This document shows, in pieces, positions 10,110 through 33,344 of a stretch of 64,000 nucleotides of DNA; within the stretch, counting starts at the first letter, position 1; every line of letters starts with the position of its first letter. The notes under the pieces are model-generated. The model was not told the origin of the DNA. It made no database searches and was given only the letters and a program-made list of their open reading frames with translations. The DNA is from an uncultured Bacteroidales bacterium (lineage in GTDB: Bacteria; Bacteroidota; Bacteroidia; Bacteroidales; FEN-979), in NCBI GenBank assembly GCA_903916595.1, contig CAIWXI010000055.1, positions 7,870 to 71,869 of the forward strand, given 5' to 3'. The position numbers and the translations under genes were made by a program.

Positions 10110-10120
10110 TATCCGTTATT

Positions 10121-16628: not shown

Positions 16629-16725
16629 ATGATACGGCTGATATTAATTTTACCATACGAAGACTGTTTCTATGCAGAACTATAAACAGCCCATATTATT
16701 TTAAACAAACATTAACAAAAATTTT

Positions 16726-19329
16726 ATGAAAAAAATAATCCTGTCTCTCCTGTTTGCTGTGGTATTGATCAGCAGCGGGTTTGGAAAAACCGTTGAAGTA
16801 AACCGTGCAAAAAATGTTGCGTCAAATTACCTGGCTTCAATGCCAACCCGGTTTCCACAGGGAATTCCCGGAGGTCTGAGCCTGTGTTATACGGCTGCGG
16901 AAAACAACACCTCCGCAATGAAGGCATCCTCAGCGCCATTATATTATGTTTTTAATATAAACAGCGCCTATGGTTTTATCATTATTTCGGCGGATGATGT
17001 TGTCATTCCGGTGCTGGCTTATTCCGATGAAACCAGTTTCTCTGCTGATAACATTCCACCTAATGTTGCAGGCTGGCTGAAGGGGTATGAGAATGAGATC
17101 AGTCATGCCATCAGCACGAACCTGGATCAGGCTCCTGAAGTTCAGTCGGAATGGACCGCCCTGGTCAAAGGCCCTCTGCAGGGCCATGCGCTTAAGTCGG
17201 CAACCGGAGTTAATGCTCTTATCACAACCATCTGGGGTCAGGACCCGTTCTATAATGATCTATGTCCGTACGATAATACCGCTGCTGAGCGGACCGTAAC
17301 CGGATGTGTTGCCACAGCTATGGCCCAGGTCATGAAATATCATGCTTATCCCACCACCGGTATCGGAAGTTATTCTTACAGCACCACCCGTTATGGAACC
17401 CTGTCGGCTAATTTCGGGGCAACGACTTATAACTGGACCGCCATGCCCAACAACGTGACCACAGCAAACACTGCCGTGGCCACCCTGATGTATCATTGCG
17501 GGGTGGGTGCCAAAATGGACTACAACGTGAGTGCCCAGGGAGGAAGTGCAGCATACGTCGTTGCTACCGACGATCCGAAATGTGCTGAAAATGCACTGAA
17601 AGACTATTTCGGTTATGCCACAACTTTGCAGGGCAAAACGAAATCAAATTACACCAACACCGAGTGGATCAACCTGCTGAAAACCGAACTTAATGCCAGC
17701 AGGCCGATGGTCTATGCAGGGGGAGCGCATTGCTTTGTCTGTGACGGTTATGATGACAGTGATAAGTTCCACTTCAACTGGGGCTGGTCGGGAAGTTACG
17801 ACGGATTTTACGCCCTTACAGCTCTGATACCGGGTGGGACCGGGACCGGCGGGGGCAACGGGAATTACACCAACGGACAGGAAGCTGTTATCGGGATTCG
17901 TAAGCCGGCTTCGGGGGGAGGCGGAGACAGGTTTTTCAAGCTTGCATTAAATGCAGCGGTCACCTGCCCATCCGACATCATCAATTACGAAGATTCCCTC
18001 TCCTTTCACACCGATATCATTAACAATGGCCAGTCGACGTTCAGCGGCGATATTTCAGCCTGTATCTTTGATACCAACGGGATCTTTATTCATGAAGTCC
18101 AGACCATCAAGGGAGTTGCACTCACCGCCGGCAGCCATTTGCCAAACGGTGCAACTTTCACAAACCCCGGGCTCACCTCCATGCTTCCCAACACGTATTT
18201 CGTGGGTATTATGTACAGGTCGGCCGATACAAACTGGATCATTGTTCCCGATACCAATGCCTTCCACAACAATAAACGGCTGGTGGTCATAAACACCAAC
18301 CCCGTCGAAATGTATGCGGCCATGAACATAAGCCCCGGCTTAAATATGACACAGGGAGATGCAGTATCGGTGCAGGCCGACATCGTCAATCACGGAACCA
18401 CCGATTTTAACGGCACTCTGGACCTTTCGATTTACGACATGGAAGGGTATTATGTGAATTTTATAGGCGAGAAGACAAATTTCACACTCCCGGTGAACCA
18501 GCACACCATGGGTCTGACATTCAGTACATCCAGCATCAATGTCCAGCCCGGCAGCTATCTTATAGCTATGCTGTTTCAGCCCGCCGGATCGTCGGACTGG
18601 CAGTTGATAGGATCCACCGCTTATGCAAACCCGGTTAAAATCCAGGTCAATGCAGTTCCTTTGATCGCCGATCAGTATGAGCCCAATAACACTTCCGCAA
18701 CGGCTTCTTCCCTGCCGGTAAGTTTCGCAACAAACCCGGCCATTATTAATACTGTTGGTGCAAACTGCCATACAGGCATAGATTTTGACTTTTACACACT
18801 TTCTCTCCCTGCAGGCTATAATTATGTTATTACCGGCAATCTGGTTGATGCTTATAATGACCCTGACCAGGTATATACCCTGGATGCACTCTGGTCGTAT
18901 TCCACCAACGGCATAACCTGGTCTGAGGCTTATGATGACACCATTCCTGATATTACAATGAACAACGGCGGAACTATTATGTTCGACGTTGAACCATATT
19001 ACCCCGGTCAGACAGGAACGTACCAGTCAGTTGTACGGATAAGCAGGAACGCGCTTGGCGTAAATGATAAAACGCAGCCTGATCAAGTCATGGTTTACCC
19101 CAATCCTGTTACTGATTACCTCTTTATTGAATCAGCAGACCAACGGGCAGTCTTATCAGGAATTAAGCTGTTCAGCGTGACTGGATGCGAGCTTACCACA
19201 GTGAACTTTACCGGGCTTAAGTCCGGCTGCAGCATGTCCGTTACTAACCTTCAGGATGGAACATATATCCTTGCAGTGACAACTGTCAGCGGCATTATTC
19301 ACAGGCAGATCGTCATCCGGAAAAAATAA
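16726..19329 (+). CDS. C10-family (streptopain/SpeB-like) cysteine peptidase with PPC domain and T9SS C-terminal sorting domain
   Basis: Catalytic Cys motif TGCVATAMAQVMKYH, His motif GGAHCFVCDGYD, and FHFNWGWSG. There is an N-terminal Spi-inhibitor-like propeptide. EPNNTSATASSL...DFDFYTL indicates a PPC domain, and the C-terminal VYPNPVTDYLFIE...GTYIL indicates a T9SS CTD. Confidence 0.85.
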   Translation: MKKIILSLLFAVVLISSGFGKTVEVNRAKNVASNYLASMPTRFPQGIPGGLSLCYTAAENNTSAMKASSAPLYYVFNINSAYGFIIISADDVVIPVLAYSDETSFSADNIPPNVAGWLKGYENEISHAISTNLDQAPEVQSEWTALVKGPLQGHALKSATGVNALITTIWGQDPFYNDLCPYDNTAAERTVTGCVATAMAQVMKYHAYPTTGIGSYSYSTTRYGTLSANFGATTYNWTAMPNNVTTANTAVATLMYHCGVGAKMDYNVSAQGGSAAYVVATDDPKCAENALKDYFGYATTLQGKTKSNYTNTEWINLLKTELNASRPMVYAGGAHCFVCDGYDDSDKFHFNWGWSGSYDGFYALTALIPGGTGTGGGNGNYTNGQEAVIGIRKPASGGGGDRFFKLALNAAVTCPSDIINYEDSLSFHTDIINNGQSTFSGDISACIFDTNGIFIHEVQTIKGVALTAGSHLPNGATFTNPGLTSMLPNTYFVGIMYRSADTNWIIVPDTNAFHNNKRLVVINTNPVEMYAAMNISPGLNMTQGDAVSVQADIVNHGTTDFNGTLDLSIYDMEGYYVNFIGEKTNFTLPVNQHTMGLTFSTSSINVQPGSYLIAMLFQPAGSSDWQLIGSTAYANPVKIQVNAVPLIADQYEPNNTSATASSLPVSFATNPAIINTVGANCHTGIDFDFYTLSLPAGYNYVITGNLVDAYNDPDQVYTLDALWSYSTNGITWSEAYDDTIPDITMNNGGTIMFDVEPYYPGQTGTYQSVVRISRNALGVNDKTQPDQVMVYPNPVTDYLFIESADQRAVLSGIKLFSVTGCELTTVNFTGLKSGCSMSVTNLQDGTYILAVTTVSGIIHRQIVIRKK

Positions 19330-19397: not shown

Positions 19398-20462
19398 ATG
19401 ACTGGAGCTCTTCAAGTTTTGATTGCTGAAGCCATCAGCAGCGCAATAGGTTTTCTGTTATGTTCAAGGGATGGGCAAGGGCTGTGGTCCGATTTCCGCC
19501 TTCCCATCGGGGAGAGCAGCGGGTGGGTCACCGGGTTTGTAGGTTCAGTCCTCGCCGGCTCTGGTGATGACCGTGTCATAAGGGAAACGAAGAATGTCTG
19601 GAATGTGTTTGCCGCTCAAAAACTGTTCACCGGTCACGGGGGATGGGGATATAACTTGCTCACCCCCGAGGATGCCGACAGCACGGTATGGGGTATCAGG
19701 TTTGCTCTAAGCCTCGGCCTGGATGGGAAGTTCAGGACAAAGGCAGCGGAGGAGTTTCTTCTGAAGCATTGGTTAACAGATGGCGGGATCACCACATACA
19801 TCCTTGAAAAAGAGCTTAGAAAACTGATTGGCGCCACGCCTGAAGAGGACATCCGGGGATGGACGGGTTCACACCTCTGTGTGACCGCCGCGGCTGCAGG
19901 GATTCCTGGGTTCAGCAGCATCCTTTTACCCTACATCCTGGAACATCAGCTTCCCGCCGGGAACTGGAATGGTTACTGGTGGAGCGATTCCGCTTATGCC
20001 ACAGCTCTTGCGACGGAGGCCCTGCTTGTCGCAGGAATGACTGAACACCGCGATGCAATTGACCGGGCGTTCTCCTGGGCGATGCAGCATTTCGGCAGGG
20101 AAGCTTTCGTTTCAAATGATATCTTTCGTGAGGGATCTCCCTTTGCCACAGCCCTGGCTTTAAAGACCCTGCTTCTTGCCGGGGAGGTTGACAAGACCCG
20201 TGAAAAATCCGGGGCGGTTGCCCGATGGCTCATCAGCCGGCAGCAGGACAACGGATCGTGGCAACCCTCTGCCTTGCTGCAGGTTCCTCCGCCTTTTATG
20301 AAAATACCGGTCGATCCCGGGAGCTGGCCTGATGGAAAAGGAGCTGCCTGGGGCACCGTGGTTACCGATCACAGGTCGTTGTTTACCACGGCAGCCGTAC
20401 TCGATTCGCTGGTGTTCTATCAGAAGACCCATTCAGGAACGATAAAGCCGGAAGCACTATGA
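19398..20462 (+). CDS. QW-repeat alpha/alpha-toroid protein (squalene-cyclase / prenyltransferase-repeat-like), single domain
   Basis: Repeats of the type a..(F/W/Y)L...Q..dG.W are present: GFLLCSRDGQGLW, YILEHQLPAGNW, RWLISRQQDNGSW and GHGGWGY. PEDADSTVWGIRFAL resembles the DxDD(T/S)A segment of class II cyclases. No signal peptide. Confidence 0.6.
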   Translation: MTGALQVLIAEAISSAIGFLLCSRDGQGLWSDFRLPIGESSGWVTGFVGSVLAGSGDDRVIRETKNVWNVFAAQKLFTGHGGWGYNLLTPEDADSTVWGIRFALSLGLDGKFRTKAAEEFLLKHWLTDGGITTYILEKELRKLIGATPEEDIRGWTGSHLCVTAAAAGIPGFSSILLPYILEHQLPAGNWNGYWWSDSAYATALATEALLVAGMTEHRDAIDRAFSWAMQHFGREAFVSNDIFREGSPFATALALKTLLLAGEVDKTREKSGAVARWLISRQQDNGSWQPSALLQVPPPFMKIPVDPGSWPDGKGAAWGTVVTDHRSLFTTAAVLDSLVFYQKTHSGTIKPEAL

Positions 20463-21526
20463 AACATTCGACCCCAGCCGAAAAGTATGCTAAACTTTAT
20501 ATCACGCAGGATCAGGTGCTTGGCGCTATGTCCGGCCGTTTCGGGCCCTTTTATCTTTCGGGTGGCGCTGCCCTCTCAAGGTATTACCTGAACCATCGCT
20601 TCACCTACGATCTGGATTTTTCAGCTAACATTTTACCCTGCTTTGAGAGAAAGGCTGCTCCTGTAGTTGACGTGCTGAAAACACAATGCCATGTTACTGA
20701 TGACGAACCAGCAGTTTACGCGCGATATTTCCACCTGTGGATACAGGGCAGCGAAAAGCTCAAGATCAGTATTTCAAACGACATTTCCGAACAATTGGGG
20801 TTGCCGTTTATGGCAGGGCAGGTTCCTGTGGATAATATGAAGAACATGCTGGTTAAAAAACTCAAAACCATTCTGGATCGTGATAACCCTAAAGATCTGT
20901 TCGATATCGTAAGTATTGCATCGGCCTACAGTTTTCATTGGGGTGATGTGTTGAAGTATGCGCAAAAGAAAGCCGTCATGGCCCAGGTGAATCTCTTATT
21001 GCAATTCAGCCGGGTTGCCTTCCGGTTTAACAGTATATGGCGCGGACGGGAACCAAAAGATCTGTTCAGCCTTTTGGGGGCTCCTCCGCCTATAGGTTTC
21101 AACAGGGTCTATCTGACTGCAAATATCGGGCGGAACGGCAGTAATTATGAAAAACCTTCTTCCACCATGGAATCCCTTTCGCGAGAGCTGCGACGTACTG
21201 CCTACAGGCTTAAAGCGATTTCAGAGTCGGATGGCCTCGCGAATGAGGCGCAGATCGCTGACATTCCTTCCTGTTTCAATCTGACACTGGGAGGGGCCTC
21301 CATAAGGATTGACCTGCCAGCGGTTTCTGTAAGGGACAAGGCCCTTAAACAATTCAGCCGGGTTCCGGCAGGACTTTACCAGGGTCTGGAATGGATGCAC
21401 TCTCCTGTTGCGGCAGAAGAACTGAAAGCGAAGTTCAAAATGATCAGGAATGATCTTTTCCTGGCCGGAGAAAATTCACTTGGCATTGGAAAAACTCCCA
21501 TTGATAAGGCCAGGCCGGGGCTATAA
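20459..21526 (+). CDS. AbiEii/DUF1814-like nucleotidyltransferase-fold protein
   Basis: N-terminal FYLSGGAALSRYYLNHRFTYDLDF fits the GG(T/A)AL...R.(S/T).D(I/L)DF pattern of AbiEii-family NTases. The start overlaps the upstream stop (ATGA at 20459-20462). Confidence 0.5.
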   Translation: MKHSTPAEKYAKLYITQDQVLGAMSGRFGPFYLSGGAALSRYYLNHRFTYDLDFSANILPCFERKAAPVVDVLKTQCHVTDDEPAVYARYFHLWIQGSEKLKISISNDISEQLGLPFMAGQVPVDNMKNMLVKKLKTILDRDNPKDLFDIVSIASAYSFHWGDVLKYAQKKAVMAQVNLLLQFSRVAFRFNSIWRGREPKDLFSLLGAPPPIGFNRVYLTANIGRNGSNYEKPSSTMESLSRELRRTAYRLKAISESDGLANEAQIADIPSCFNLTLGGASIRIDLPAVSVRDKALKQFSRVPAGLYQGLEWMHSPVAAEELKAKFKMIRNDLFLAGENSLGIGKTPIDKARPGL

Positions 21527-22642: not shown

Positions 22643-22930
22643 CTATGATCCCTGGCCGGGCCCCCCCCAACCTGTCCCCCCGGCAACTGAAGCCAGCTCT
22701 GCTTCGGTGAGTTCGTCTTCAGCAGCATCTCCCCGAAAGGGAGGAAGAACAAGGTAAACGGTTTTCTGATCCTCCTGCAGAATCTTTATTTTTATTGTTT
22801 CCGGAAGATTTATTCCAGTCTCCAGTTCGAAAATTAATTTTGGATTATCAATCAGCTTCTTACGGAATGAATCATCTTTCATCGCTTTTTCGATGATTTG
22901 CTCTTCAAGCTTTTTTCTGAGATTTGACAT
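22643..22930 (-). CDS. NHLP-leader precursor B (core TGWGGPGQGS as assembled)
   Basis: MSNLRKKLEEQIIEKAMKDDSFRKKLIDNPKLIFELETG...TVYLVLPP...ELTEAELASVAGG has the same leader family as precursors A and C. The core-coding part contains a G8 homopolymer, so the C-terminus is uncertain. Confidence 0.8.
   Translation of the reverse strand: MSNLRKKLEEQIIEKAMKDDSFRKKLIDNPKLIFELETGINLPETIKIKILQEDQKTVYLVLPPFRGDAAEDELTEAELASVAGGTGWGGPGQGS
22661..22668 (-). repeat. G8 homopolymer (C8 on plus strand) inside the core-coding region of precursor B
   Basis: Coding strand reads ACA GGT TGG GGG GGG CCC GGC CAG GGA TCA TAG. Confidence 0.95.
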
Positions 22931-22959: not shown

Positions 22960-24918
22960 TTATCGTTTGACGACAAGTTTCTTTGTCTCCATCCAGTCGG
23001 CTGTTTTAATTACGATATTATAGATTCCCTGGGAAGCCTGGGAAAGGTCAATACTATATTCTTTTTTTCCGCTGAATTTTTTCTCAAGGATGGCCCTGCC
23101 TGACTGATCTTCAACAAGGACATTCAGCGTTAAACAGCTTTCATTTGATGGTACGATCCGGAAAATACCCATTGTGGGATTCGGGTAGATCGAAACCTGG
23201 TTGCCCGAGCTTCCTGCCGGGTTGGAAACCCCGAGGGGGTCAATTATTTTAAAGGAAGCGATCCTTGTCTTGGGAGTACCAGCTCCTGTTGCATACTGAT
23301 TCGTGTACCAGAAAGTCTGGTCATCGGAAGGATCCACAGAGAGGGATGTATAATCACCCCAGCGTTCTGGCGATGAACCGCCGGACTGTGAGGTAGTACC
23401 CACCCATATTGTATCTTCAGCAATGTCGAGGATAGAGTTACCGGCCAGGTAAGCGGTAGCGGACTGACCACAGTAGCGAATCCCGGGGTATTCGCCATCG
23501 CTGGATATCGAATATCCCAGCCCTATGGTGTTGGATCCGTTCAACATGATGCTGCCCATCCACCGGCTGTTTGTATCAGGGGCATAAGTGCCTTCCTGTC
23601 TTATGCTCCAGTCGCTGCCGGTTTTTCGCAATTCATACCATCTGATCCCGGCCTGGCCCTTCTGATCTATATTTACAGTGTGGCAGCAAACGATGGTCTG
23701 GTACGATCCGAAGTTACGGTACTGGGGCACATTCATGATAATAGTGGGCACGGCATCAACTTTCTGGGTGGTTCCTTTCTGCCTGATATCTTCCCAGTTA
23801 CTGCCGAAGTTACTGTTAAAGGGTGTCACATCCAGTTGTTGAACACGGTTGAATGTCGATGCCGCCGTGTCGGTCCAGTTCACAGCCAGTTCATATATCC
23901 AAATCTGGTCTTTGGTTCCGCTGGAAGCATCATCGTTAATGGCAATATAAATGCCGGGAGATCCTGCCGGAGCAAAGGGTCCGTCATTATCTACAGGAGG
24001 AACAACCCTGAATCCTCCGCTTCCGCCCGGACGATAGGGATTTTTAATTCCGAAAAACTTGGGAATACTATCTCCCACCAGCATCTTCGACCTCTCATAA
24101 ACATAGGTATCCCTTCCCCCACTATTATTATTATCCCCCATATAATACCCATCCTGCCATACGCCGAATTTAGGGTAATCGGGCATTATGTCGGCCTTGA
24201 AAGAATACGGGTACCAGGTTCCCGTAGGGTCGTTTGTTGAGGATACGGCCATAAGAATATAATTCGGGGTCCCGTCTTTGGGCACCGAGAATTCTGTGGC
24301 CAGCCAGCGATCGGCCTGTTCGTCATACAGGATGACCGGATCACCGTCGTTCCGGTTTGCTCCCGGCTTATTGCCAAACAGCAGGTTCATATCAGTAGGC
24401 CCGGCTACAAGTGTGCCTGTTTTATCATATATAGCATACGTGTCATTCATCGTCTGCATGTAATGGTTTTTACCAACGGTCCCGTTATCGTCGGAAGGCC
24501 GGGATCCTGACTCCTGTCCTTCAAAATTTTTCAGCGGACTGCGGAAAAGCTTCTGAGTTCCCATATTTTTCTGCCAGGCCCCGTCCTCACCTTTTGGGAG
24601 GGCTGTTTCAGCAAAAGGATAGGTACGCTCCGACTTTTCTTCATTAATTGTCCGTTTGCTGTTTTTAAGTTTCAGCGCATTGAATTCATCAGCAGTTAAT
24701 GCAGGAAGATCGCGTAAAGGACGGGTTTCACCCAGGAAAGTCCCGGTCCCCACTATGGTAGGGTGAACCGGTATTGTTGGTGTGAATGAGTTTTGATCTG
24801 GCTTTTTAGCCGAAGAAGATGATTGGTTCTGGGCATAGACGCCCCTTGCCAGGAGCAGTATTATCAGCAACATGAAAAGGGAATAATAGTTCCCCGAAGA
24901 AGCAGAATGTGTTTTCAT
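22960..24918 (-). CDS. T9SS-secreted protein of unknown function (possible beta-propeller)
   Basis: Signal peptide (LLIILLLARGVYAQ). C-terminal VSIYPNPTMGIFRIV...GIYNIVIKT...KKLVVKR indicates a T9SS sorting domain. There are Asp-box-like segments such as SSTNDPTGTW. The stop lies 29 nt before precursor B. Confidence 0.75.
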   Translation of the reverse strand: MKTHSASSGNYYSLFMLLIILLLARGVYAQNQSSSSAKKPDQNSFTPTIPVHPTIVGTGTFLGETRPLRDLPALTADEFNALKLKNSKRTINEEKSERTYPFAETALPKGEDGAWQKNMGTQKLFRSPLKNFEGQESGSRPSDDNGTVGKNHYMQTMNDTYAIYDKTGTLVAGPTDMNLLFGNKPGANRNDGDPVILYDEQADRWLATEFSVPKDGTPNYILMAVSSTNDPTGTWYPYSFKADIMPDYPKFGVWQDGYYMGDNNNSGGRDTYVYERSKMLVGDSIPKFFGIKNPYRPGGSGGFRVVPPVDNDGPFAPAGSPGIYIAINDDASSGTKDQIWIYELAVNWTDTAASTFNRVQQLDVTPFNSNFGSNWEDIRQKGTTQKVDAVPTIIMNVPQYRNFGSYQTIVCCHTVNIDQKGQAGIRWYELRKTGSDWSIRQEGTYAPDTNSRWMGSIMLNGSNTIGLGYSISSDGEYPGIRYCGQSATAYLAGNSILDIAEDTIWVGTTSQSGGSSPERWGDYTSLSVDPSDDQTFWYTNQYATGAGTPKTRIASFKIIDPLGVSNPAGSSGNQVSIYPNPTMGIFRIVPSNESCLTLNVLVEDQSGRAILEKKFSGKKEYSIDLSQASQGIYNIVIKTADWMETKKLVVKR

Positions 24919-24977: not shown

Positions 24978-24985
24978 CAAATATA
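24978..24985 (-). promoter_or_regulatory. -7-type promoter box TATATTTG for the T9SS-cargo / precursor B operon
   Basis: Exact match to the Bacteroides TAnnTTTG consensus on the minus strand. It lies 60 nt upstream of ATG 24918 and 19 nt downstream of the TTTG in element copy 2. Confidence 0.5.
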
Positions 24986-25000
24986 ATTGCAGGACAGTTT

Positions 25001-25054
25001 GTTTCAAAATAAAACAAGTAAGGATTTGTAAAAAGGAGTAAGAAATTGTAAAAA
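25001..25054 (-). promoter_or_regulatory. phased-TTAC conserved element, copy 2 (upstream of T9SS-cargo / precursor B operon)
   Basis: Minus strand reads TTTTTACAATTTCTTACTCCTTTTTACAAATCCTTACTTGTTTTATTTTGAAAC. TTAC occurs at offsets 4, 14, 24 and 34, an exact 10-bp phasing. Confidence 0.65.
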
Positions 25055-25074
25055 CCTGCAATGTGGGTTGCAGG
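25050..25074 (-). terminator. putative intrinsic terminator after the TPR-AraC gene
   Basis: Minus strand reads CCTGCA-ACCCACAT-TGCAGG followed by TTTTT, starting 7 nt after the stop codon. The 6-bp stem is short. The T-run overlaps the first TTAC of element copy 2. Confidence 0.4.
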
Positions 25075-25080: not shown

Positions 25081-26967
25081 CTAAGAAAGATTATCTTCAT
25101 TTTCACGACTGCTGGCAATGGAATTCCTAAAATAAGAAGGCGTTATACCGATCTGTTTTTTGAAGATAGAATGAAACGTAACTTTTGTACTGAAACCTAC
25201 CATTTCCCCTATGCCTTCTATGGAGAGATGGTCATATTTTGATTCTGTAAGAAGCCTCCTCGCCTCCTTGATCCTCAGCTCGTTTATAAAGCTGTTGAAG
25301 TTCTGTTTGTAATTATCATGGATCATGTGCGAAAGGTAAGTGCGGTTTGTGTTTAATTTCCTGCAGATATCATCTACAGTGAGGCCTGGTTCAAGGAAAG
25401 GTTTTTCGTCCTGCATTAACCGGCTGAACTTTACCAACAGACCCAGGGTAGTGTTTTCAATTTCATTATCCGGAGGGATAACCATGATTTGATCATCAGA
25501 GATGCTTATGCTTCTCCGGGCTTCAATCTGTTTCTCGGTTTTTACGATTTCCAGGTTCTTCCTGACGATTTGCCTGAATGCCCTGCTCTTTTGCCGGTAT
25601 AACATCGAAATCACAAAACCCAGCACTAAAAGTACAAAAGCAACTCCGGCTAAGAATTTTATCTGTAATTTCTGAAGATTGTTGGCTTTTTGCAATAAAA
25701 GATTTTCCTGCTCTTTCTTTTCTGTTTCAAAACGGGTTTGCATTTCAAGAATTGCCTTGGTTTTATCTTCGCTAAAGATGCTGTCACCTGCAATCCGGTA
25801 TCTCGAAAAAAAATCTTTGGCAGCAGATTTATCGCCGGTGATTATACTTATTTCGGTCAAATAGCGGCTGCATTTCTGTATCATTTCAAGTGAATTTTCC
25901 TCACTGGCATAGTCGAATGCTTCCCGGAACATTTTGGTCGCAGCTGCCAGATTGCCTTTATTATATAAGATTTCACCCAGGCTCACGTTCAAGCTGGCAA
26001 TCTCAGCGCCCGATCCGATACTATTGGCCAGGGCCAGGGCTTGCTCATAATATTCAATTGCTTTTGGTTCGTTCTTCAGCAAATCAGCATATACATCTCC
26101 CAGACAGTGAAGGGAAATTACGATCCCGTATTTATTGCCGATTTCTTTTTTCAGCTCAAGAGATTTCCGATGATAAAATAAGGCTGAATCCGGTTGTTTG
26201 AGGTCTACGTAGAGATCTCCAAGAGCAGTATAATTAGTGGCCAGGTATTTCTTGTTCTTCCTTTTCAGGTTAATTGAGATGGCTTTCTTCAAAAACAAGC
26301 TGGTCATTTTATTATTGTCCCAGTCAAAATATACCAAACCGAGATTGTTATAGGTTGCCGCCAGGCCGTCTGAATCGGCAAGCTCCTCTTTCAGCCTGGC
26401 TGATTCGAGAAAGTATTTTGTGGCTTTTTCATAGAATGATGTTTGTTTATAGGTGGAAGCCATGTTGTTGTATAGCTTCGCCATTTGCGGCTTGTCATTT
26501 ACAGGCAGAAGTATTTCCCTTGCCTTTTCATAATAATTCAACGCGTCGGAAAATCTGCCCATGTAATAGTAAGTAGTTCCGATATCAGTATAAATTTTTC
26601 CGATGTCAAGTGGTTCTTTTAGTTCCCGGGCTATGCTTAGCGCATGATCATAGCAGGCCAGAGAACTGTCATATTCGCCCAGCATCTGATAAATGTTGGC
26701 AAGATTCCGCTGCATGGACATGCCGGCTAATGTTTTTCCGAAATCATGCTTTTTGCTGAATTGCAGCAGCTTTTCTTTTGCTATAAGGTAATTTCCTGAT
26801 AACCTGAAAAGCTCAAAAGACTTCTGTAAAAAAAACAGGGCGCTGTCTGATTTACCTGAATTGATAAAGCCTTCAGAAAGTAAAAGACAGGAGTCGGCCG
26901 ATTTCTCCTGGGTAAAAACGAAATAGCCGGATAGAAAAAAAATCAGCAATAAAATCAATCGCTTCAT
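25081..26967 (-). CDS. transmembrane one-component regulator: extracytoplasmic TPR domain - TM - cytoplasmic AraC-type HTH
   Basis: N-terminal signal/anchor MKRLILLLIFFLSGYFVF, then about 400 aa of TPR-like repeats, a TM segment FLAGVAFVLLVLGFVISMLY, and a C-terminal AraC HTH (TVDDICRKLNTNRTYLSHMI...IGEMVGFSTKVTFHSIFKKQIGITPSYFR). Confidence 0.8.
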   Translation of the reverse strand: MKRLILLLIFFLSGYFVFTQEKSADSCLLLSEGFINSGKSDSALFFLQKSFELFRLSGNYLIAKEKLLQFSKKHDFGKTLAGMSMQRNLANIYQMLGEYDSSLACYDHALSIARELKEPLDIGKIYTDIGTTYYYMGRFSDALNYYEKAREILLPVNDKPQMAKLYNNMASTYKQTSFYEKATKYFLESARLKEELADSDGLAATYNNLGLVYFDWDNNKMTSLFLKKAISINLKRKNKKYLATNYTALGDLYVDLKQPDSALFYHRKSLELKKEIGNKYGIVISLHCLGDVYADLLKNEPKAIEYYEQALALANSIGSGAEIASLNVSLGEILYNKGNLAAATKMFREAFDYASEENSLEMIQKCSRYLTEISIITGDKSAAKDFFSRYRIAGDSIFSEDKTKAILEMQTRFETEKKEQENLLLQKANNLQKLQIKFLAGVAFVLLVLGFVISMLYRQKSRAFRQIVRKNLEIVKTEKQIEARRSISISDDQIMVIPPDNEIENTTLGLLVKFSRLMQDEKPFLEPGLTVDDICRKLNTNRTYLSHMIHDNYKQNFNSFINELRIKEARRLLTESKYDHLSIEGIGEMVGFSTKVTFHSIFKKQIGITPSYFRNSIASSRENEDNLS

Positions 26968-26985
26968 GCAATGGCGGGGCCGGTC

Positions 26986-27279
26986 CTAGTAAAAACACAT
27001 AGGAGAGCAGCTATAATCATTTACATAGCCTCCGGCAACTGCCTCCAGTTCTGCATCGGTCAATTCCGAGTCAACTTCAGTTGAAGCCAGACGAGGCAGC
27101 ACCAGGTATATGGTGCCCGGGTCTTCTTCGAGAATTTTCAAGGTTACTGATTCAGAAACTGCTACACCCATTTCATTAATAATTACTGCTGCCGGGTTGT
27201 CAATAAGTCTTTTTCTGAAATCCATATCTTTCAGGGACATTTCGATGAGCTTTGGTTCGATTTCTTTTCTCAGGTTCAT
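26986..27279 (-). CDS. NHLP-leader precursor C (core YVNDYSCSPMCFY)
   Basis: MNLRKEIEPKLIEMSLKDMDFRKRLIDNPAAVIINEMG...TIYLVLP...ELTDAELEAVAGG. The gene ends 18 nt before the TPR-AraC gene on the same strand. Confidence 0.85.
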   Translation of the reverse strand: MNLRKEIEPKLIEMSLKDMDFRKRLIDNPAAVIINEMGVAVSESVTLKILEEDPGTIYLVLPRLASTEVDSELTDAELEAVAGGYVNDYSCSPMCFY

Positions 27280-27361
27280 GTGGTTGAGATTAACGGGAGT
27301 AAATATAAATACATTTATTAAGATTCTGCAAAGGCAGTCTATGATAATTAATAAAAAAAAC

Positions 27362-27369
27362 TATATTTG
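27362..27369 (+). promoter_or_regulatory. -7-type promoter box TATATTTG for the exporter operon
   Basis: Exact TAnnTTTG match 25 nt upstream of ATG 27395, in the 115-nt divergent intergenic region. Confidence 0.45.
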
Positions 27370-27394
27370 TTCCTAATAATTATTCCTTTCTGAT

Positions 27395-28201
27395 ATGATT
27401 GGCCGGCAGATTTTCAGAAAAACGTCGCTTGAGAAAATGATGACCCCCGAGGACCTGGATGAATTATTGCAGGTCAACCCGACCAGGACATGGCTGATGT
27501 TTGCAGGTATAGGTGTTGTTATTGCCGGGATGCTGGCCTGGGGAATCCTTGGGTCGGTAACGCAGTATGTGAAAGGATTCGGGATCATCAAGACCCGGGA
27601 GCTGCCCCGGGAGGTAGTATCGGTTTGTTCGGGGCAGGTTGATTCGATTTTCTGTAAGACCGGTGATGAGGTTGCCCAGGGCCAAAAATTGTTAATGATT
27701 CTCCAGCTGCACGAACAAACAGGTGTAACTATTTTCGCTTCCTGCCCGGGCGAAATCACCGGACTGAATGTCAGGGAAGGCACTTATGTTGAAACGGGCG
27801 CTCCAGTGCTTGAGATGATGCGAAATGAAGGCCATACCGGGACCTTTCCCGAGGTGATCTTCTTTGTGGAGGAACAGGAGGTTTCAAAGCTGAAAAAGGG
27901 GATGGTTTCCAACCTGCAAATTGATAAGGGGGGAGTGCCTCCTGAATTTTTAAATGCGGTGATCAATTTTATTGCTGATTACCCGGTTTCGAAAAATTCA
28001 ATCCAAAAATATTTTCCGGATGAGGAAATAACGAAGCAACTCAGCAACAGGGATTTCCATGAAGTCAGGGCAAGCCTGATTATCGATACGGTCGGGAAAA
28101 CGGCCCGCGCAAAGGAGGCTCTGCATTCATTAAACGGCCTATCCTGCCGCACTGTTACCACAGTGGCCCGCCGAAGTCCGGTTGCTTATCTTTTAAACTG
28201 A
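27395..28201 (+). CDS. HlyD-family membrane-fusion/adaptor protein of the NHLP bacteriocin export system, unusually short
   Basis: N-terminal TM segment (WLMFAGIGVVIAGMLAWGILG). The split lipoyl-like halves GQVDSIFCKTGDEVAQGQKLLMI and GEITGLNVREGTYVETGAPVLEM are only about 16 aa apart. It is the first gene of the exporter trio. Confidence 0.65.
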   Translation: MIGRQIFRKTSLEKMMTPEDLDELLQVNPTRTWLMFAGIGVVIAGMLAWGILGSVTQYVKGFGIIKTRELPREVVSVCSGQVDSIFCKTGDEVAQGQKLLMILQLHEQTGVTIFASCPGEITGLNVREGTYVETGAPVLEMMRNEGHTGTFPEVIFFVEEQEVSKLKKGMVSNLQIDKGGVPPEFLNAVINFIADYPVSKNSIQKYFPDEEITKQLSNRDFHEVRASLIIDTVGKTARAKEALHSLNGLSCRTVTTVARRSPVAYLLN

Positions 28202-28224
28202 TCAGGCTAATCATACTCTTCTGC

Positions 28225-30423
28225 ATGAGCTTTGAACCGATTCACTTCCTTCATTCAGTTTACTGCCGGCTTGCAGGTATAAGGCGGGTTAAAACTCCCA
28301 CGGTTCTGCAGATGGAGGCCCTGGAATGCGGGGCAGCTTCTCTGGGGATCGTATTGGCCTGCTTCGGGAAGAATGTTCCCCTCGAAAAGCTGAGGGTCGA
28401 CTGCGGTGTATCACGCGACGGGAGCTCGGCAAGCAACATCTCCAAAGCAGCAAGGAATTATGGCCTGGAAGTAAAGGCTTATAAAAAAGAGCCGGAAGAA
28501 CTTAAAAAGCTTCCTCTCCCGATGATCGTATTCTGGAATTTTTACCATTTCCTGGTTGTCGAAGGGTTTGGGAAAAACAAAGTTTACCTAAACGACCCGG
28601 CTTCCGGCCCACGTACGGTGGACTATAAAACCTTTGATGAATCCTTTACAGGAGTGGTATTGACTTTTAAACCCGGACCCGGATTTCAGAAAGAAGGCGA
28701 AAAAACGAAGTTTCTTCCCTTGTTGCTGAAATGGTTAAAAGGGTATGGAAACAGCCTGTTGTTCCTTTTCCTTGTAGGACTTGCCCTTATTATCCCCGGA
28801 CTGGCCATCCCGGTATTTTCAAAAATATTTGTCGACCAGATCCTGATCCGGCATACGGAAGCCTGGATCGTTCCCCTGCTTACAGGCATTGCAATTACTA
28901 CCATACTACGTGCTCTGTTGTCGTGGTTGCAGCAGCATAGCCTGGTACGATTGGAAATGAGTCTTTCACTTAAGAATTCCTCGAAATTTCTCTGGCACGT
29001 ACTCCATCTTCCAATGTCGTTTCATAACCAGCGGCCGGCCGGTGATATTACCATGCGGGTAAACATCAACGACCAGATTGCCATGCTGCTTTCGGGGCAG
29101 CTTGGCAATACTTTCCTGAATTTATTCATGATCGCATTTTACGCGGCCCTGATGTGTTATTACAGCCTTCCGCTGGCTGCGGTTGCCATTTTCATCTCAC
29201 TGGTAAACCTTCTCGCACTGAGATATATTTCAAGGAAACGGGTTGATTCAAATCAAAAACTCCTGCAGGATAACGGCCGTTTATTCGGGCTTTCTTCTTC
29301 AGGTTTGCAGATGATAGAGTCATTAAAAGCAACAGCTTCCGAATCGGAATTTTTCTCACGCTGGGCCGGCTACCAGGCAAAATTGCTGAACATCCAGCAG
29401 AGACTGGGGGTGCTTACCCAGACCCTGCAGGTAATCCCTGTATTTCTTACTACTCTGAGCACCCTGGTGATACTGTTTCTCGGGTCACATTATATTATCA
29501 GCGGGGTGATAACTGTGGGTACTTTTGTCGCATTCCAGTCGCTGATGGCCAGTTTTAATCAGCCTATCGTAGCCCTGGTTAACCTTGGAAGCGCACTGCA
29601 GGATGTGCAGGGAGGGCTGAAACGGATAGAGGATGTTTATAATTATCCTACAGGCCAGCCGGATGCTGATGCAACTGAATCTCAAAAAGCCGGAAAAGTT
29701 TTAAAACTGCAGGGATCGGTTGAACTTAAGGATGTGACGTTTGGTTACAGCCCGCTGGATTCGCCCCTGATCACTGGTTTTTCTCTGCACCTGAACCCGG
29801 GATCCAGGGTCGCTATCGTTGGAAGGACCGGTTGCGGAAAGTCGACCATGGCCAACCTGGTCAGCGGATTGTATGATCCATGGAAAGGAGAGATACTGTT
29901 TGACGGCAAACCCAGAGAGAGCTTTTCTCATACTACCCTGAATAATTCCATTTCCATGGTCGATCAGAACCTCTTCCTTTTTGAAGGAACTGCCAAGGAG
30001 AATATTACTTTCTGGGATCAGACCATTGCCGACAAAGATGTAATACAGGCGGCTAAAGACGCCTGCATTCATGAAGACATTGCGGCCAGACCCGGAGCAT
30101 ATGAAAGCATGATATCCGAAAACGGGAGGAATCTGAGCGGGGGTCAGAGGCAGCGGATCGAAATTGCAAGGGCGCTTGCCACCAAACCATCTGTATTGAT
30201 ACTTGATGAGGCCACCAGTGCCCTGGATGCAAAGACAGAGCAGATGATAGATATCAATATCCGTAAAAAAGGATGCACCTGCCTCATCATCGCTCACCGC
30301 CTGAGCACGATCCGTGACTGCGACGAAATCATCGTGATGGACAGGGGGAGGATAGTGCAAAGAGGAACCCACCAGGAACTGATAATCCAGCAGGGATTAT
30401 ATAACGAACTGATCAAAGAATAA
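28225..30423 (+). CDS. bacteriocin-processing ABC transporter with N-terminal C39 peptidase domain (double-glycine leader cleavage/export)
   Basis: C39 motifs QMEALECGAASLG (Cys), NFYHFLVVEG (His) and NDPASG. There is a 6-TM ABC membrane domain, Walker A GRTGCGKST, signature LSGGQRQRIEIARAL and Walker B LILDEATSALD. Confidence 0.9.
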   Translation: MSFEPIHFLHSVYCRLAGIRRVKTPTVLQMEALECGAASLGIVLACFGKNVPLEKLRVDCGVSRDGSSASNISKAARNYGLEVKAYKKEPEELKKLPLPMIVFWNFYHFLVVEGFGKNKVYLNDPASGPRTVDYKTFDESFTGVVLTFKPGPGFQKEGEKTKFLPLLLKWLKGYGNSLLFLFLVGLALIIPGLAIPVFSKIFVDQILIRHTEAWIVPLLTGIAITTILRALLSWLQQHSLVRLEMSLSLKNSSKFLWHVLHLPMSFHNQRPAGDITMRVNINDQIAMLLSGQLGNTFLNLFMIAFYAALMCYYSLPLAAVAIFISLVNLLALRYISRKRVDSNQKLLQDNGRLFGLSSSGLQMIESLKATASESEFFSRWAGYQAKLLNIQQRLGVLTQTLQVIPVFLTTLSTLVILFLGSHYIISGVITVGTFVAFQSLMASFNQPIVALVNLGSALQDVQGGLKRIEDVYNYPTGQPDADATESQKAGKVLKLQGSVELKDVTFGYSPLDSPLITGFSLHLNPGSRVAIVGRTGCGKSTMANLVSGLYDPWKGEILFDGKPRESFSHTTLNNSISMVDQNLFLFEGTAKENITFWDQTIADKDVIQAAKDACIHEDIAARPGAYESMISENGRNLSGGQRQRIEIARALATKPSVLILDEATSALDAKTEQMIDINIRKKGCTCLIIAHRLSTIRDCDEIIVMDRGRIVQRGTHQELIIQQGLYNELIKE

Positions 30424-30434
30424 GGATAGCTGCC

Positions 30435-33344
30435 ATGCCGCAAGAACTGTTTTCTGCAACAATTCGCAACAAGGGCCAAACGGTAAAAACCGGGGGGAAC
30501 CGGTCTTTCCTGTTGAATCAGCCTGAGTATGCCTGGTATTTTGCCCATGGTTACGCAGATGTTTTTTCTGTCAGGCTCGACCATGAGCAGCCCCGTGGTT
30601 CAAGGAATTATTTTTTCTCAGCCCGCCAGGGGGAATTTCTTTTTGGCATCAGCAGCAAGCATTCGGGCGATGAACGCAGTTTGATTGCCTCTCCTTCTCC
30701 GGATGCGGAAATCATTATGATCAGTATGGATCAGGTCAAAGAGCTGTGGAGCCGGACTGAGTTTACTGCAATTTTTACAGGGATACTCGAACTCTGGATC
30801 ACCCATCTTTCCCTGGCTATTTCAAAAGATATCAACCCGCGTACTGATCTGCTGCTTGAAGCCCCCATTCCGGCCAGCGTGGATGCCCATCTGAAGATCC
30901 GCTCAAGAAAAGGAATTGTATGGACGGAATTCTTTTCCGGAAACGCCTTATTTCTGGGGATGAAGGAAATCATGGAATCCGGGGAACACCTGAAATTCCC
31001 GGTTTCACAGGATTCCTGGCTGCAGACCATGGAAACTTCTGAAATCAGGTCATTTCGAACAGCCGACATTTACTTGCTGGGAGAGCTCTGGAATTACCTT
31101 GAAAATTTTTATGCAGTAATTTTTTTCTGTGAATTTTTCATTACCCGTCTCACTGCTGTTGACGACTTCAACCGTTTGAACGAGAAAACTGTTCATAGCT
31201 CAAGGGTACGTTCCTCGGCTCTCCTTAACATTGCCTCGGTTATCAATGAGAAGCTGAGAAAATCATATATTGATACCGGTTACGATGCATTGCTCACCTC
31301 ATGCCGCATTATTGCTGATTATTCGGGGATTACCATCACCACACCCAAACAACCCAGAAGTGAGGAAGCCCCTCCGCTGAGCCTGAACGACATTTTGCGT
31401 TCTTCAAGGTTCAGGGCCCGAAAAGTAAAACTCACAGGCAAGTGGTGGGAAGAGGACCATGGACCCTTGCTGGCCTGGACAACAGATGAAAATCTTCCTG
31501 TTGCCCTGATCCCGAAATCTCCCGGGAAATATGAATATATCAGCCCGGGTGAAAATATAAGACAGCCTTTAACTTCGAAAACAGCCCTGCAGCTGGCCCC
31601 GGAAGCTCAACAGTTTTATCGTCCTTTCCCCGATCAGCCCATCGGAGGCATGCATCTGATCAGGTTTGGGCTGAAGAACTGCTTCCGGGATATCCTTCTC
31701 GTCATCTTGATGGGACTGGCAGGCGGCTTCCTCGCCTTACTTATCCCGGTGTTGACGGGAAACATCTTTGATGCTGTAATCCCCCAATCCGACTACCGGC
31801 AGTTATACGTTTTTTCGATGGTCATCTTTTTCAGCATTGTCGCTATTTCCCTGTTTCAGATGGTGAGGAGTTTCGCGATGATCAGGATAGAAACAAAGCT
31901 CGATTTTTCGCTGCAATCGGCATTATGGGACCGCCTGCTCAATTTACCCGTTTCCTTTTTCAGGAGATACCAGGCCGGCGATCTTGCTAATAAGGCAAAC
32001 GGCCTGATGATGCTGCGTAAAACACTTTCCGATACCGTGATTTACAGTGTGCTTGGCGCAGTTTTCATGCTGTTTAACTTTTTCCTGCTGTTTTTTTATG
32101 ACGTTGCTCTTACCTTGTATGTTTTTCTTTTCCTGGTCATATCCCTTCTCTTTATTTTTTATTTCGGGAAGCAGATCCAAAAGCGTCAGCAAATTATCAC
32201 TCAGCTTCAGGGCAGGATTTTCGGTATGCTGATCCAGTTTTTATCCAGTATCTCCAAGATAAAGATCGCCGGCGCTGAAGTCCATGCCTTTTCGCAATGG
32301 GCCATGAAGGTCTCGGTGGTTAAAAGACAAACCTATGAAGTAAGAAAGCTGTTTAAGGTGGTCTCCGTGTTTTCGATGGTAGTGCCCCTTGTAATCACAC
32401 TGTTTGTTATTGCGGTTATTTCCTGGCAGCCGCCAGATACACTCTCGACCGGTCAGTTCATGGGATTTTACACCGCATTGACTATGACCGTTGTATCGTT
32501 CTTTCAGTTTGGAATGGCCGTCATTTCGTTTTTCATGGCAATTCCGATGCTCGAAAGCATACGCCCGATACTGGAGGCTCTGCCCGAGAATATCGCCCTG
32601 AAGGAGGACATCAGGGAACTTTCAGGCGAAATTGAGGTTGCCAATGTCAGTTTCAGATACCAGCCTGATTTGCCCTTAGTGCTTCATGATGTTTCTTTAC
32701 ACATCCGGCCCGGAGAATTCGTAGCTATTGCTGGAGCTTCAGGTTCAGGAAAATCGACTTTATTACGCTTGCTGCTTGGCTTTGAATCACCCGAGGTCGG
32801 CTCAATATTTTATGACCGCCAGGATATTTCAGCATTTGATCCTGCATCAATAAGAAGGCAGGCCGGAACAGTGCTTCAGCAATCGCAGCTGTCGGTGGGG
32901 ACCCTGCTCACCAATATCACCGGCATGGGTAACGCGACGTTTGAAGATGCGTGGGAAGCAGCCCGGAATGTGGGCCTCGACGAGGACATCAAGCAAATGC
33001 CGATGGGGATGCACACCATGATTACAGGGGGATTGAGCACTATTTCAGGCGGTCAGTGTCAGCGCATCATGATCGCCCGGGCTATCGTGAACAAGCCCCG
33101 TATACTGTTCTTTGATGAAGCTACCAGCGCACTCGATAATAAAACCCAGAATATCGTCAGTAAAAGCCTTGAAACGCTCCAGGCCACGAGGGTGGTTATC
33201 GCCCATCGTCTGACTACGGTTCAGCATGCCGACCGGATTTACCTGATGGAACATGGAAGTATCGAAGAATCGGGAACCTATGAAGATCTGCTCAGAAAAG
33301 GCGGAAAATTCGCTGAACTGGTAAAGCGGCAGATGCTTGAATAA
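30435..33344 (+). CDS. second ABC permease/ATPase of the NHLP export system, with ~400-aa non-peptidase N-terminal extension
   Basis: Walker A GASGSGKST, signature ISGGQCQRIMIARAI and Walker B LFFDEATSALD. There is a TM domain. The N-terminal region lacks the C39 Cys motif, and as I recall such paralogues are described as cNMP-binding-like. Confidence 0.85.
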   Translation: MPQELFSATIRNKGQTVKTGGNRSFLLNQPEYAWYFAHGYADVFSVRLDHEQPRGSRNYFFSARQGEFLFGISSKHSGDERSLIASPSPDAEIIMISMDQVKELWSRTEFTAIFTGILELWITHLSLAISKDINPRTDLLLEAPIPASVDAHLKIRSRKGIVWTEFFSGNALFLGMKEIMESGEHLKFPVSQDSWLQTMETSEIRSFRTADIYLLGELWNYLENFYAVIFFCEFFITRLTAVDDFNRLNEKTVHSSRVRSSALLNIASVINEKLRKSYIDTGYDALLTSCRIIADYSGITITTPKQPRSEEAPPLSLNDILRSSRFRARKVKLTGKWWEEDHGPLLAWTTDENLPVALIPKSPGKYEYISPGENIRQPLTSKTALQLAPEAQQFYRPFPDQPIGGMHLIRFGLKNCFRDILLVILMGLAGGFLALLIPVLTGNIFDAVIPQSDYRQLYVFSMVIFFSIVAISLFQMVRSFAMIRIETKLDFSLQSALWDRLLNLPVSFFRRYQAGDLANKANGLMMLRKTLSDTVIYSVLGAVFMLFNFFLLFFYDVALTLYVFLFLVISLLFIFYFGKQIQKRQQIITQLQGRIFGMLIQFLSSISKIKIAGAEVHAFSQWAMKVSVVKRQTYEVRKLFKVVSVFSMVVPLVITLFVIAVISWQPPDTLSTGQFMGFYTALTMTVVSFFQFGMAVISFFMAIPMLESIRPILEALPENIALKEDIRELSGEIEVANVSFRYQPDLPLVLHDVSLHIRPGEFVAIAGASGSGKSTLLRLLLGFESPEVGSIFYDRQDISAFDPASIRRQAGTVLQQSQLSVGTLLTNITGMGNATFEDAWEAARNVGLDEDIKQMPMGMHTMITGGLSTISGGQCQRIMIARAIVNKPRILFFDEATSALDNKTQNIVSKSLETLQATRVVIAHRLTTVQHADRIYLMEHGSIEESGTYEDLLRKGGKFAELVKRQMLE

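Follow-up and report, generated by a model that had tools for sequence, protein, structure and literature searches.

A membrane-tethered TPR-AraC protein as the probable activator of a peptide-export and protease cluster in uncultured freshwater Bacteroidota

We analyzed a window of 64 kb from the uncultured Bacteroidales contig CAIWXI010000055.1, with a focus on a regulator that joins tetratricopeptide repeats (TPR) to an AraC-type helix-turn-helix (HTH). Pfam and NCBIfam scans delineated a peptide cluster that spans ~14.6-33.3 kb of the window, and within these limits the TPR-AraC protein was the sole DNA-binding protein detected by domain scans. The gene upstream of it, on the same minus strand, encodes a peptide precursor with an NHLP leader, which we call precursor C; further precursors (A and B), a dedicated exporter, proteins bearing sorting domains of the type IX secretion system (T9SS) and two small secreted proteins are also encoded in the cluster. 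An earlier note on this DNA had reported that precursor C ends 18 nucleotides (nt) before the regulator and that the exporter is transcribed divergently from a common 115-nt region. The gap is exact (stop codon at 26986-26988, regulator ATG at 26965-26967), the exporter operon does diverge from precursor C across 27280-27394, and the earlier description of the locus was correct in each detail that could be checked.

The regulator contains only two hydrophobic segments by hydropathy, at residues 1-19 and 438-457. The first is a predicted signal peptide and is followed by Gln in nearly all orthologs; Gln at position +1 (the 'Q-rule') is typical of Bacteroidota substrates of signal peptidase I. 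The second is a putative transmembrane (TM) helix, right after which five Lys or Arg residues occur at residues 464-483. We utilized AlphaFold2 with an 11-sequence alignment to predict the structure of the regulator (mean predicted local distance difference test score, pLDDT, of 82). The predicted structure revealed ~ten helical hairpins at residues 24-395, followed by an unbroken 83-residue helix (397-479) that holds the TM segment; a disordered linker then leads to an AraC domain of seven helices (507-627), with ~50 residues linking the TM segment to the AraC domain. Because the HTH must be cytoplasmic, the TPR domain would be periplasmic. The topology suggested in the earlier note, with TPR outside and the AraC HTH inside, is borne out by the predicted signal peptide, the single TM segment, the positive-inside rule and the AlphaFold2 model. 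When the TPR domain was searched with Foldseek, the best match was the peptide-binding TPR of LGN/Pins (E 7e-13), and Rap proteins were found at 3e-7 (8rte, 4i1a). As modeled, the TPR fold is compatible with a peptide or protein ligand and by itself proves nothing.

The DNA-binding domain scored 58.5 bits with HTH_18 (cutoff 33.6) and 30.6 bits with HTH_AraC (cutoff 26.6). Its first putative recognition helix, TNRTYLS, hardly varies within the regulator family; we took the recognition helices to be those equivalent to the ones of MarA. For the sensor region, the best NCBIfam match was the TPR kinase FimS, and TPR-TM-output modules are widespread in Bacteroidota, where they carry kinase, phosphatase, cyclase, LuxR or AraC outputs in many contexts. 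A Pfam scan of the regulator found no HisKA, HATPase or Response_reg domain, and the kinase and receiver that mark a hybrid two-component system are missing between sensor and AraC domain. The SusR model NF058541 was matched with 22 bits against a cutoff of 480, over TPR residues 78-265 only. By its DNA-binding domain, the regulator is a member of the AraC/XylS family; by topology, and not by homology, it is a SusR-like one-component membrane sensor.

We compared the locus with ~16 distinct orthologous lineages with flanking DNA and three more distant relatives. These loci came from a protein search, scans of GTDB genomes and JGI metagenomes and contig look-ups, and the window proteins were mapped onto them. 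Regulator orthologs from the protein search showed 46-100% identity, and the ortholog lineages were all uncultured freshwater Bacteroidota/Bacteroidales. NHLP precursors and/or the NHLM exporter adjoin the regulator in most of the distinct lineages of at least 48% identity (~14/16), with a neighboring NHLP open reading frame (ORF) that can be B-like, A-like, C-like or devoid of the double-glycine (GG) site. In most orthologs the order is regulator, operator (see below), precursor, and some of the long-form orthologs are convergent with the exporter. At 55-59% identity (L036, L039/L078), no NHLP or exporter gene was found within ≤10 kb on each side, and L039/L078 lies beside T9SS and Fib_succ_major genes. 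Further out, the neighbor of a 38% relative is a C10 T9SS peptidase, and a 30% relative lies beside four T9SS cargo genes in series. In orthologs with ≥64% overall identity, the TPR domain was about as close to the window protein (0.69-0.85) as the DNA-binding domain (0.72-0.86), and the TPR domain is kept although the neighboring cores are unrelated.

The order seen in the window, precursor then regulator, recurs only within the window's own lineage (94-100% identity; L021 and L022, 94%) and in L002/L032 (65%). In the latter, the upstream ORF is a 71-aa NHLP leader without GG site or core, and the 200 nt after it hold a separate TATATTTG promoter box for the regulator. Conservation of the precursor-regulator adjacency, which the earlier note had put forward as a check, therefore failed, as the pairing varies in type, order and integrity. 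The two lineages share a short regulator (628-644 aa) with ~120 fewer N-terminal TPR residues than the ~750-aa orthologs. Pairing of this short form with an upstream precursor fits two lineages, yet one of them has only a leader remnant, and the short form thus lends no support to a signal-receptor pair.

Underlying an inverted match of 55 nt (16575-16629 against 25000-25054) is a 40-bp element that consists of two direct repeats of 20 bp each. The phased TTAC element that the earlier note had placed next to the regulator gene is real and corresponds to this tandem repeat (25015-25054, minus strand), which we refer to as the operator. It occurs at three sites in the window, all inside the cluster and each oriented to a downstream gene. 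We scanned the orthologous loci with the 40-mer as query (threshold ≥27/40 matches) and identified 40 sites with 29 unique sequences, while 540 kb of unrelated control loci yielded no site at this threshold. In the consensus, tTTTTtACaATTncTTACTCCTTTTgttAAATCCTTACcTG, cTTACTCC and CCTTACcTG stand out as the strongest boxes, at a distance of 20 bp, and a weaker T-rich box lies 10 bp upstream of each. The consensus is followed by 6-7 nt, TTG(g/a), ~19 nt and TAnnTTT(g), with spacing fixed across the 29 instances; the -33 TTTG and -7 TAnnTTTG elements are presumably the Bacteroidota housekeeping promoter boxes.

The operator typically starts ~30-90 nt past the regulator stop codon, as it does in most loci, and it persists beside the 55-59% orthologs that have no NHLP genes (L036, L039/L078). 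Among the 28-38% relatives, no recognizable repeat was found in the intergenic regions of L080, L082 and L083; only L081 (33%) has the two-repeat, fixed-spacing layout directly 3' of the regulator gene, with the boxes changed to TGAC/TAAC. The second putative recognition helix of L081 has changed in parallel, from KVTFHS to RVVFYK. Downstream of the operator are genes for NHLP precursors, C10 peptidase, other T9SS cargo, the pair of SQHop-like and AbiEii-like proteins, and small secreted proteins; in L032 the downstream gene appears to be a giant uninterrupted ORF, since no ORF that closes within the locus is listed on that strand. The link between regulator and element proposed in the earlier note gained from these comparisons, with 29 unique instances, usually immediately 3' of the regulator gene, and a shifted version at 33% identity. 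These observations are strong circumstantial evidence that the regulator would bind the element and that the element-bearing genes would be its regulon.

Operator copy 1 is followed by perfect promoter boxes. In contrast to the operator-bearing promoters, no operator (≥25/40) was found in 27280-27394, that is, before precursor C and the regulator or before the exporter. A candidate -7 box lies 20 nt before the ATG of precursor C, and a terminator-like hairpin with a GC-containing stem of 7 bp stands after the regulator, immediately before the operator. These features suggest that precursor C and the regulator are transcribed together as a bicistron, with a housekeeping-type promoter and a terminator but independently of the operator, and that the exporter operon is likewise operator-independent. 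A partial TTAC match upstream of precursor A (15487-15514) was below the operator threshold and was dropped; transcription of precursor A would more probably start at the 14646 operator and run on through the gene of a 218-aa secreted protein. The mechanically called 278-aa ORF at 14599-15435 (plus strand) is over-extended: a signal-peptide-like start, MKKNIGLFICGLLLSATMGVAQ, occurs at 14779, and the operator at 14646-14685 falls within the spurious 5' extension. A BLAST match to GGAATTTTTACCATTTC in the coding sequence of ABC1 (28535-28551) is conserved only through the gene and was judged to be chance. A sigma-70 promoter scan gave matches no commoner than in shuffled sequences, with a consensus that is wrong for Bacteroidota, and only its terminator output was used.

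Three orthologous loci deserve mention for their own sake. L022, the 94% relative, carries a 1.36-kb insertion between regulator and operator (11885-13244) with a 392-aa ORF that we judged by eye to be transposase-like, so the regulator-operator adjacency can be broken by mobile elements. At L079 (48%), a class II lanthipeptide synthetase LanM (DUF4135 plus LANC_like) is encoded at 14576-17860, and at least nine NHLP-type precursors were found with tblastn, six of which were called with an NHase_alpha match, in a prochlorosin-like organization; a diverged operator lies right after the regulator gene of this locus. In L084, which belongs to the second C-type lineage, a TPR membrane protein with a GerE/LuxR-type HTH (5495-7510, minus strand) is divergent from the regulator ortholog and followed by a response-regulator gene, which indicates that TPR-TM-HTH sensors with differing outputs cluster together.

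Taken together, these results make it probable that the regulator is a membrane-tethered one-component activator of a cluster for NHLP peptides, their peptidase-containing ATP-binding cassette transporter (PCAT) and T9SS cargo in uncultured freshwater Bacteroidota. Its architecture and topology signals, its linkage, and the operator with its geometry can be read from the sequences and models; beyond these, we infer activation rather than repression, and control by a periplasmic ligand in the TPR groove. In the proposed mechanism, a Sec-exported periplasmic TPR superhelix would be coupled through the long stalk helix and single TM segment to the cytoplasmic AraC/XylS domain. Two regulator monomers would bind the 40-bp operator in tandem, one per 20-bp repeat, and each repeat would offer two TTAC-like boxes 10 bp apart, one per HTH, in adjacent major grooves. 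Between the end of the operator and the downstream -33 TTTG there are 6-7 bp, which would make this class II activation. The regulon would comprise the operon of the 652-aa T9SS protein, precursor B and the 343-aa protein unk343; the C10 peptidase operon, to which the SQHop-like and AbiEii-like genes probably belong; and the operon headed by the gene of the 218-aa secreted protein, with precursor A as a probable member. The cue may be a periplasmic peptide or protein segment, whether or not it is a product of the cluster, and a lineage-conserved cue is more likely than peptide C specifically.

Several points weigh against this reading. Cleavage of the signal peptide is a prediction and the promoter boxes are pattern matches, and copies 2 and 3 of the operator are imperfect, at 37/40 and 30/40. 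Binding of the operator by the regulator is deduced from co-location and from the general AraC paradigm, and a factor encoded elsewhere could bind it instead. All organisms are represented by metagenome-assembled genomes or metagenome contigs, with flanks of ≤10 kb per side, which limits every statement that a relative is without NHLP genes.

Judged by its sequence, precursor C is a bona fide NHLP precursor, with an above-cutoff TIGR03793 leader, a GG site followed by a short core, and an NHLM exporter nearby. The core of its C-type counterpart in a 77% ortholog is YVNDYSCSPMCYY. In a collection of 5.8 billion proteins, the C-type core was found in just two lineages, and the regulator adjoins it in both; with n = 2, this co-occurrence is weak. 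Between the two C-type lineages, 2 of 13 core codons have changed compared to 45 of 84 leader codons (Fisher p = 0.015), and the nucleotide identity to L005 is 95% for the core (26989-27027) and 76% for the leader. The B-type precursor behaves alike, with 97% nucleotide identity to L003 in the core (22646-22675) and 75% in the leader; because the B-type core is equally conserved, core conservation is not specific to C. In these alignments, the conserved core and divergent leader of C- and B-type precursors are the reverse of the usual pattern of peptides that are ribosomally synthesized and then modified post-translationally (RiPPs), in which the leader is conserved and the core varies. This could reflect strong constraint or recent exchange of the core segment. 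The B-type cores are Gly-rich with one Trp (TGWGGPGQGS, TANWGGPGQGT, GGPWGNAGPGS and AAPWGGGGGGPPS) and differ between lineages.

NHLP-like ORFs that lack the GG site or consist of a leader only adjoin the regulator in L003 (3585-3875), L029 (11171-11521), L004 (3275-3532), L005 (7118-7369) and L002 (2259-2474), and in some cases the GG-less ORF is kept between lineages (L003 vs L029). They may be precursors in decay, or else leader-domain proteins that have their own function.

Pfam and NCBIfam scans of the window turned up no RiPP enzyme of a known family, with LanM, cyclodehydratase and radical-SAM genes all absent, and the unk343, SQHop-like and AbiEii-like proteins are candidates for core-modifying enzymes. 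The unk343 gene directly follows a B-type (WGG-type) precursor in most lineages that have an intact copy. Genes of this type are located at 4516-5544 in L001, 10382-11410 in L003 and 19623-20651 in L030, and in L026 the gene stands after an A-like, Cys-containing precursor. The protein is a candidate for a new peptide-modifying or immunity protein. The SQHop-like/AbiEii-like pair also occurs in L003, L026, L030 and L079, with a TTAC operator of its own in L026, and the two proteins could be peptide tailoring enzymes. The exporter adaptor has only 268 aa at every locus versus 421 positions in the family model, and, judged by its sequence, the long helical hairpin that would separate the lipoyl half-motifs seems to be missing. 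In such adaptors the long hairpin contacts TolC-type channels, so a hairpin-less adaptor makes release of the peptides into the periplasm conceivable. Outside the cluster, a 1154-aa ORF (999-4463, minus strand) had no Pfam match at E ≤ 1e-5, and 4774-11308 holds genes for a STAS-domain protein, two hybrid kinase/receiver proteins and a FIST protein, followed by two L,D-transpeptidase genes. As far as can be told, this signaling block (999-11308) is unrelated to the regulator. The features of the cluster are listed in Table 1.

Table 1. Features of the regulator locus and the surrounding peptide cluster (positions in the window).
Feature	Positions	Strand	Basis or remark
TPR-AraC one-component regulator, 628 aa	25081..26967	-	Pfam TPR_12 1.4e-41, HTH_18 8e-16
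Predicted signal peptide, aa 1-20, MKRLILLLIFFLSGYFVFT then Q	26908..26967	-	Hydropathy peak, residues 1-19
Predicted periplasmic TPR superhelix, aa 24-395	25783..26898	-	AlphaFold2 helices
Putative single TM helix, aa 438-457	25597..25656	-	Kyte-Doolittle maximum 2.77
AraC/XylS two-HTH domain, aa 507-627	25087..25449	-	HTH_18/HTH_AraC at 534-615
Terminator-like hairpin CCTGCAA-CCCACA-TTGCAGG + TTTTT	25055..25074	-	6 nt after regulator stop
Operator copy 1, TTTTTACAATTTCTTACTCC / TTTTTACAAATCCTTACTTG, four TTAC at 10-bp phase	25015..25054	-	Directly after terminator hairpin
Putative promoter of 652-aa T9SS protein-precursor B-unk343: -33 TTTG 25005-25008, 19 nt, -7 TATATTTG 24978-24985	24978..25008	-	
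Operator copy 2, 37/40	16575..16614	+	-33 TTTG 16621-16624, -7-like TAATTTTA 16645-16652
Operator copy 3, 30/40	14646..14685	+	Upstream of secreted 218-aa protein, likely ATG 14779
Candidate promoter of precursor C-regulator: -33 TTTG 27329-27332, 21 nt, -7 TATATTTA 27300-27307	27300..27332	-	
Putative exporter -7 box TATATTTG	27362..27369	+	25 nt before HlyD-like ATG; no operator nearby
Precursor C, 97 aa	26986..27279	-	TIGR03793 leader_NHLP 78.2 bits vs cutoff 50.9, residues 4-84
Precursor C leader, aa 1-84, ends ...AVAGG	27028..27279	-	
Precursor C core, 13 aa, YVNDYSCSPMCFY	26989..27027	-	After GG site
Precursor B, core TGWGGPGQGS	22643..22930	-	TIGR03793 83.8 bits; 29 nt after T9SS gene
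Precursor A, NHLP leader, core GQFTGFSFCHTCGCDSFTRECE	15597..15917	+	
Exporter operon: HlyD-like adaptor, NHLM ABC1 with C39, NHLM ABC2	27395..33344	+	
HlyD-like adaptor, 268 aa	27395..28201	+	TIGR03794 94 bits, below cutoff 156
NHLM ABC1 with C39 peptidase	28225..30423	+	TIGR03796 1054 bits, above cutoff
NHLM ABC2	30435..33344	+	TIGR03797 826 bits, above cutoff
652-aa secreted protein, T9SS sorting domain	22960..24918	-	Por_Secre_tail 7.8e-12; predicted operator-driven
unk343, 343 aa	21569..22600	-	No Pfam or NCBIfam family; synteny
C10-family cysteine peptidase, Inhibitor_I69 propeptide, T9SS domain	16726..19329	+	Peptidase_C10 2.8e-59; predicted operator-driven
SQHop_cyclase-like, alpha/alpha-toroid	19398..20462	+	
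AbiEii-like nucleotidyltransferase	20459..21526	+	Overlaps SQHop-like gene by 4 nt

The same comparisons bear on the signal. According to the earlier note, peptide C (YVNDYSCSPMCFY, perhaps closed into a disulfide loop) would be exported by the C39-ABC transporter, bound by the periplasmic TPR domain and thereby switch on the operator promoters. Signal and receptor would then be a dedicated, co-transcribed pair like those of comCDE or agr. The putative bicistron with its constitutive-type promoter, the presence of the regulator beside both C-type cores in 5.8 billion proteins, a core far better conserved than its leader and a TPR fold nearest to peptide-binding TPRs would all agree with this proposal. 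However, the gene order is confined to one lineage and L002/L032, the latter with its core-less remnant and separate regulator promoter, and most orthologs (70-77% identity; TPR 71-78% identical) have no C-type peptide in the recovered contig portions. The B-type core is conserved likewise, and in the wider family the association is with T9SS cargo, not with peptides. An operator-like site precedes the C-type precursor of L005/L084, which hence behaves as a target there, whereas in the window the lack of an operator upstream of precursor C and the regulator or of the exporter leaves no autoinduction loop. Neither a conserved signal-receptor pair nor a receptor-dependent promoter before the signal gene, as expected of a pheromone circuit, was found at this locus. 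In addition, the exported 1.5-kDa peptide would need to re-enter the periplasm, as in diderms the usual route of a PCAT plus adaptor leads through TolC out of the cell (PMC12219008). With an order that is not conserved, no operator before the precursor, relatives without NHLP genes and a TPR domain conserved beside unrelated cores, the role of precursor C as the cognate signal is not supported, and we consider this model highly improbable.

Feedback from cluster products in general, for instance from the B-type WGG peptide (WGGPGQG) after processing by unk343, is a second model: most precursors are operator-driven, so a sensed product would close a positive loop in the manner of bacteriocins. 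The B-type precursor and unk343 are the most widely shared regulon cargo, and the seemingly hairpin-less adaptor makes periplasmic release conceivable. However, relatives of 30-59% identity stand beside T9SS cargo with no NHLP or exporter genes nearby, and B-type cores vary between lineages, so we regard product feedback as unlikely. The same judgment applies to a full diderm autoinduction circuit, in which the PCAT would export an NHLP peptide, perhaps no further than the periplasm, for detection by the TPR domain, and peptide C would serve as the primer signal; this, too, is doubtful. Alternatively, the cue may be unrelated to the cluster peptides, such as envelope or secretion stress, foreign or prey peptides and proteins, or nutrient polymers, with secreted peptides, C10 protease and T9SS cargo deployed on demand; control by proteolysis of the periplasmic domain is a variant of this model. 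It would account for the TPR-TM-output module being widespread in many contexts, for FimS as the best sensor match, for relatives that adjoin T9SS cargo without NHLP genes, and for conservation of the TPR domain across lineages with differing peptide repertoires, and SusR senses an external nutrient in the periplasm by a like topology (PMC3878776). On the other hand, no candidate cue can be named from the sequence, and the regulator's close integration into NHLP clusters, which holds down to 48% identity, fits product sensing equally well. We hold this model to be possible, though less likely than not. The remaining probability falls to regulation without a small ligand, or to the model being wrong.

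Our full-text literature search found no description of TPR-TM-AraC regulators or of NHLP-cluster regulation in Bacteroidota, the only relevant finds being SusR and general PCAT papers, and a TPR-TM-AraC activator over an NHLP/PCAT/T9SS regulon with a defined operator is a combination undescribed in the searched literature. How RiPP and bacteriocin clusters are regulated in Bacteroidota is essentially uncharted. The module is compact, consisting of a membrane-tethered sensor-activator, a 40-bp operator, a Bacteroidota promoter geometry and a regulon joining exported peptides with T9SS proteases. Its operator consensus could be used for predicting regulons in metagenomes and for inducible expression of silent NHLP clusters. 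If the TPR domain does sense a cluster product, this would be a new type of Gram-negative peptide signaling; if it senses another cue, the regulator would still identify what sets off the secretion of peptides and proteases in abundant freshwater Bacteroidota.

The regulator combines traits that are found apart in known systems. AraC/XylS proteins (AraC, XylS, MarA/SoxS/Rob) share its C-terminal two-HTH domain (HTH_18). Their paradigm is one of ~20-bp direct repeats, each with two sub-boxes one helical turn apart, abutting the -35-equivalent element, and the candidate operator matches this geometry. Classical members are soluble, with a cytoplasmic N-terminal ligand/dimerization domain, whereas the regulator described here would be membrane-tethered with an extracytoplasmic sensor. 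ToxR, CadC and TcpP are likewise single-pass proteins coupling a periplasmic sensor to a cytoplasmic DNA-binding domain without phosphotransfer. However, they carry an N-terminal OmpR-type winged helix and are oriented N-in/C-out, in contrast to the N-out (TPR)/C-in (AraC) arrangement predicted here. Hybrid two-component systems of Bacteroidota also have an AraC output, but their kinase and receiver modules are absent from the regulator. SusR (BT3705) senses in the periplasm, binds DNA on the cytoplasmic side and switches on neighboring operons by way of direct repeats (PMC3878776). The regulator shares with it the inner-membrane order of periplasmic sensor, TM segment and cytoplasmic C-terminal DNA-binding domain, together with weak TPR_SusR similarity. 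Unlike the regulator, SusR has a DNA-binding domain that is not AraC-type and responds to maltose or a starch oligosaccharide, and its predicted sites are 67-77 bp apart, compared to the contiguous 20-bp repeats seen here.

Peptide-sensing systems offer a second set of comparisons. The RRNPP proteins (Rap, NprR, PlcR, PrgX, Rgg) also sense through a TPR superhelix. They are cytoplasmic, bind re-imported peptides and, where an HTH is present, carry it at the N-terminus as an XRE-type domain; the predicted signal peptide, single TM segment and C-terminal AraC HTH of the regulator, with its TPR placed in the periplasm, set it apart from this group. In Firmicutes, GG pheromones (ComC/ComAB/ComDE, BlpC/BlpAB/BlpRH, PlnA) are exported by C39 PCATs and co-transcribed with their receptor, which in turn governs bacteriocin-like genes by way of direct repeats. 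The locus described here would have the PCAT-exported GG peptide and the peptide-receptor co-transcription in common with them, but their receptors are kinases with response regulators and their pheromone operon is autoinduced, whereas the window has no operator ahead of precursor C and the pairing is not kept among orthologs. The NHLP/NHLM bacteriocin systems, reportedly described by Haft et al. in 2010, share with the cluster the NHLP leaders, the GG site, export by two ABC proteins and an adaptor, and multiple precursors per cluster. Relative to these systems, to bacteroidetocins and to class II microcin-like peptides, the cores found here, at 10-22 aa, are very short. In Bacteroidaceae, GG peptides that depend on a PCAT are antibacterial (PMC12219008). 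Compared to the NHLP/NHLM systems, the cluster is distinguished by T9SS cargo and a C10 protease that would belong to the same predicted regulon as its exported peptides.

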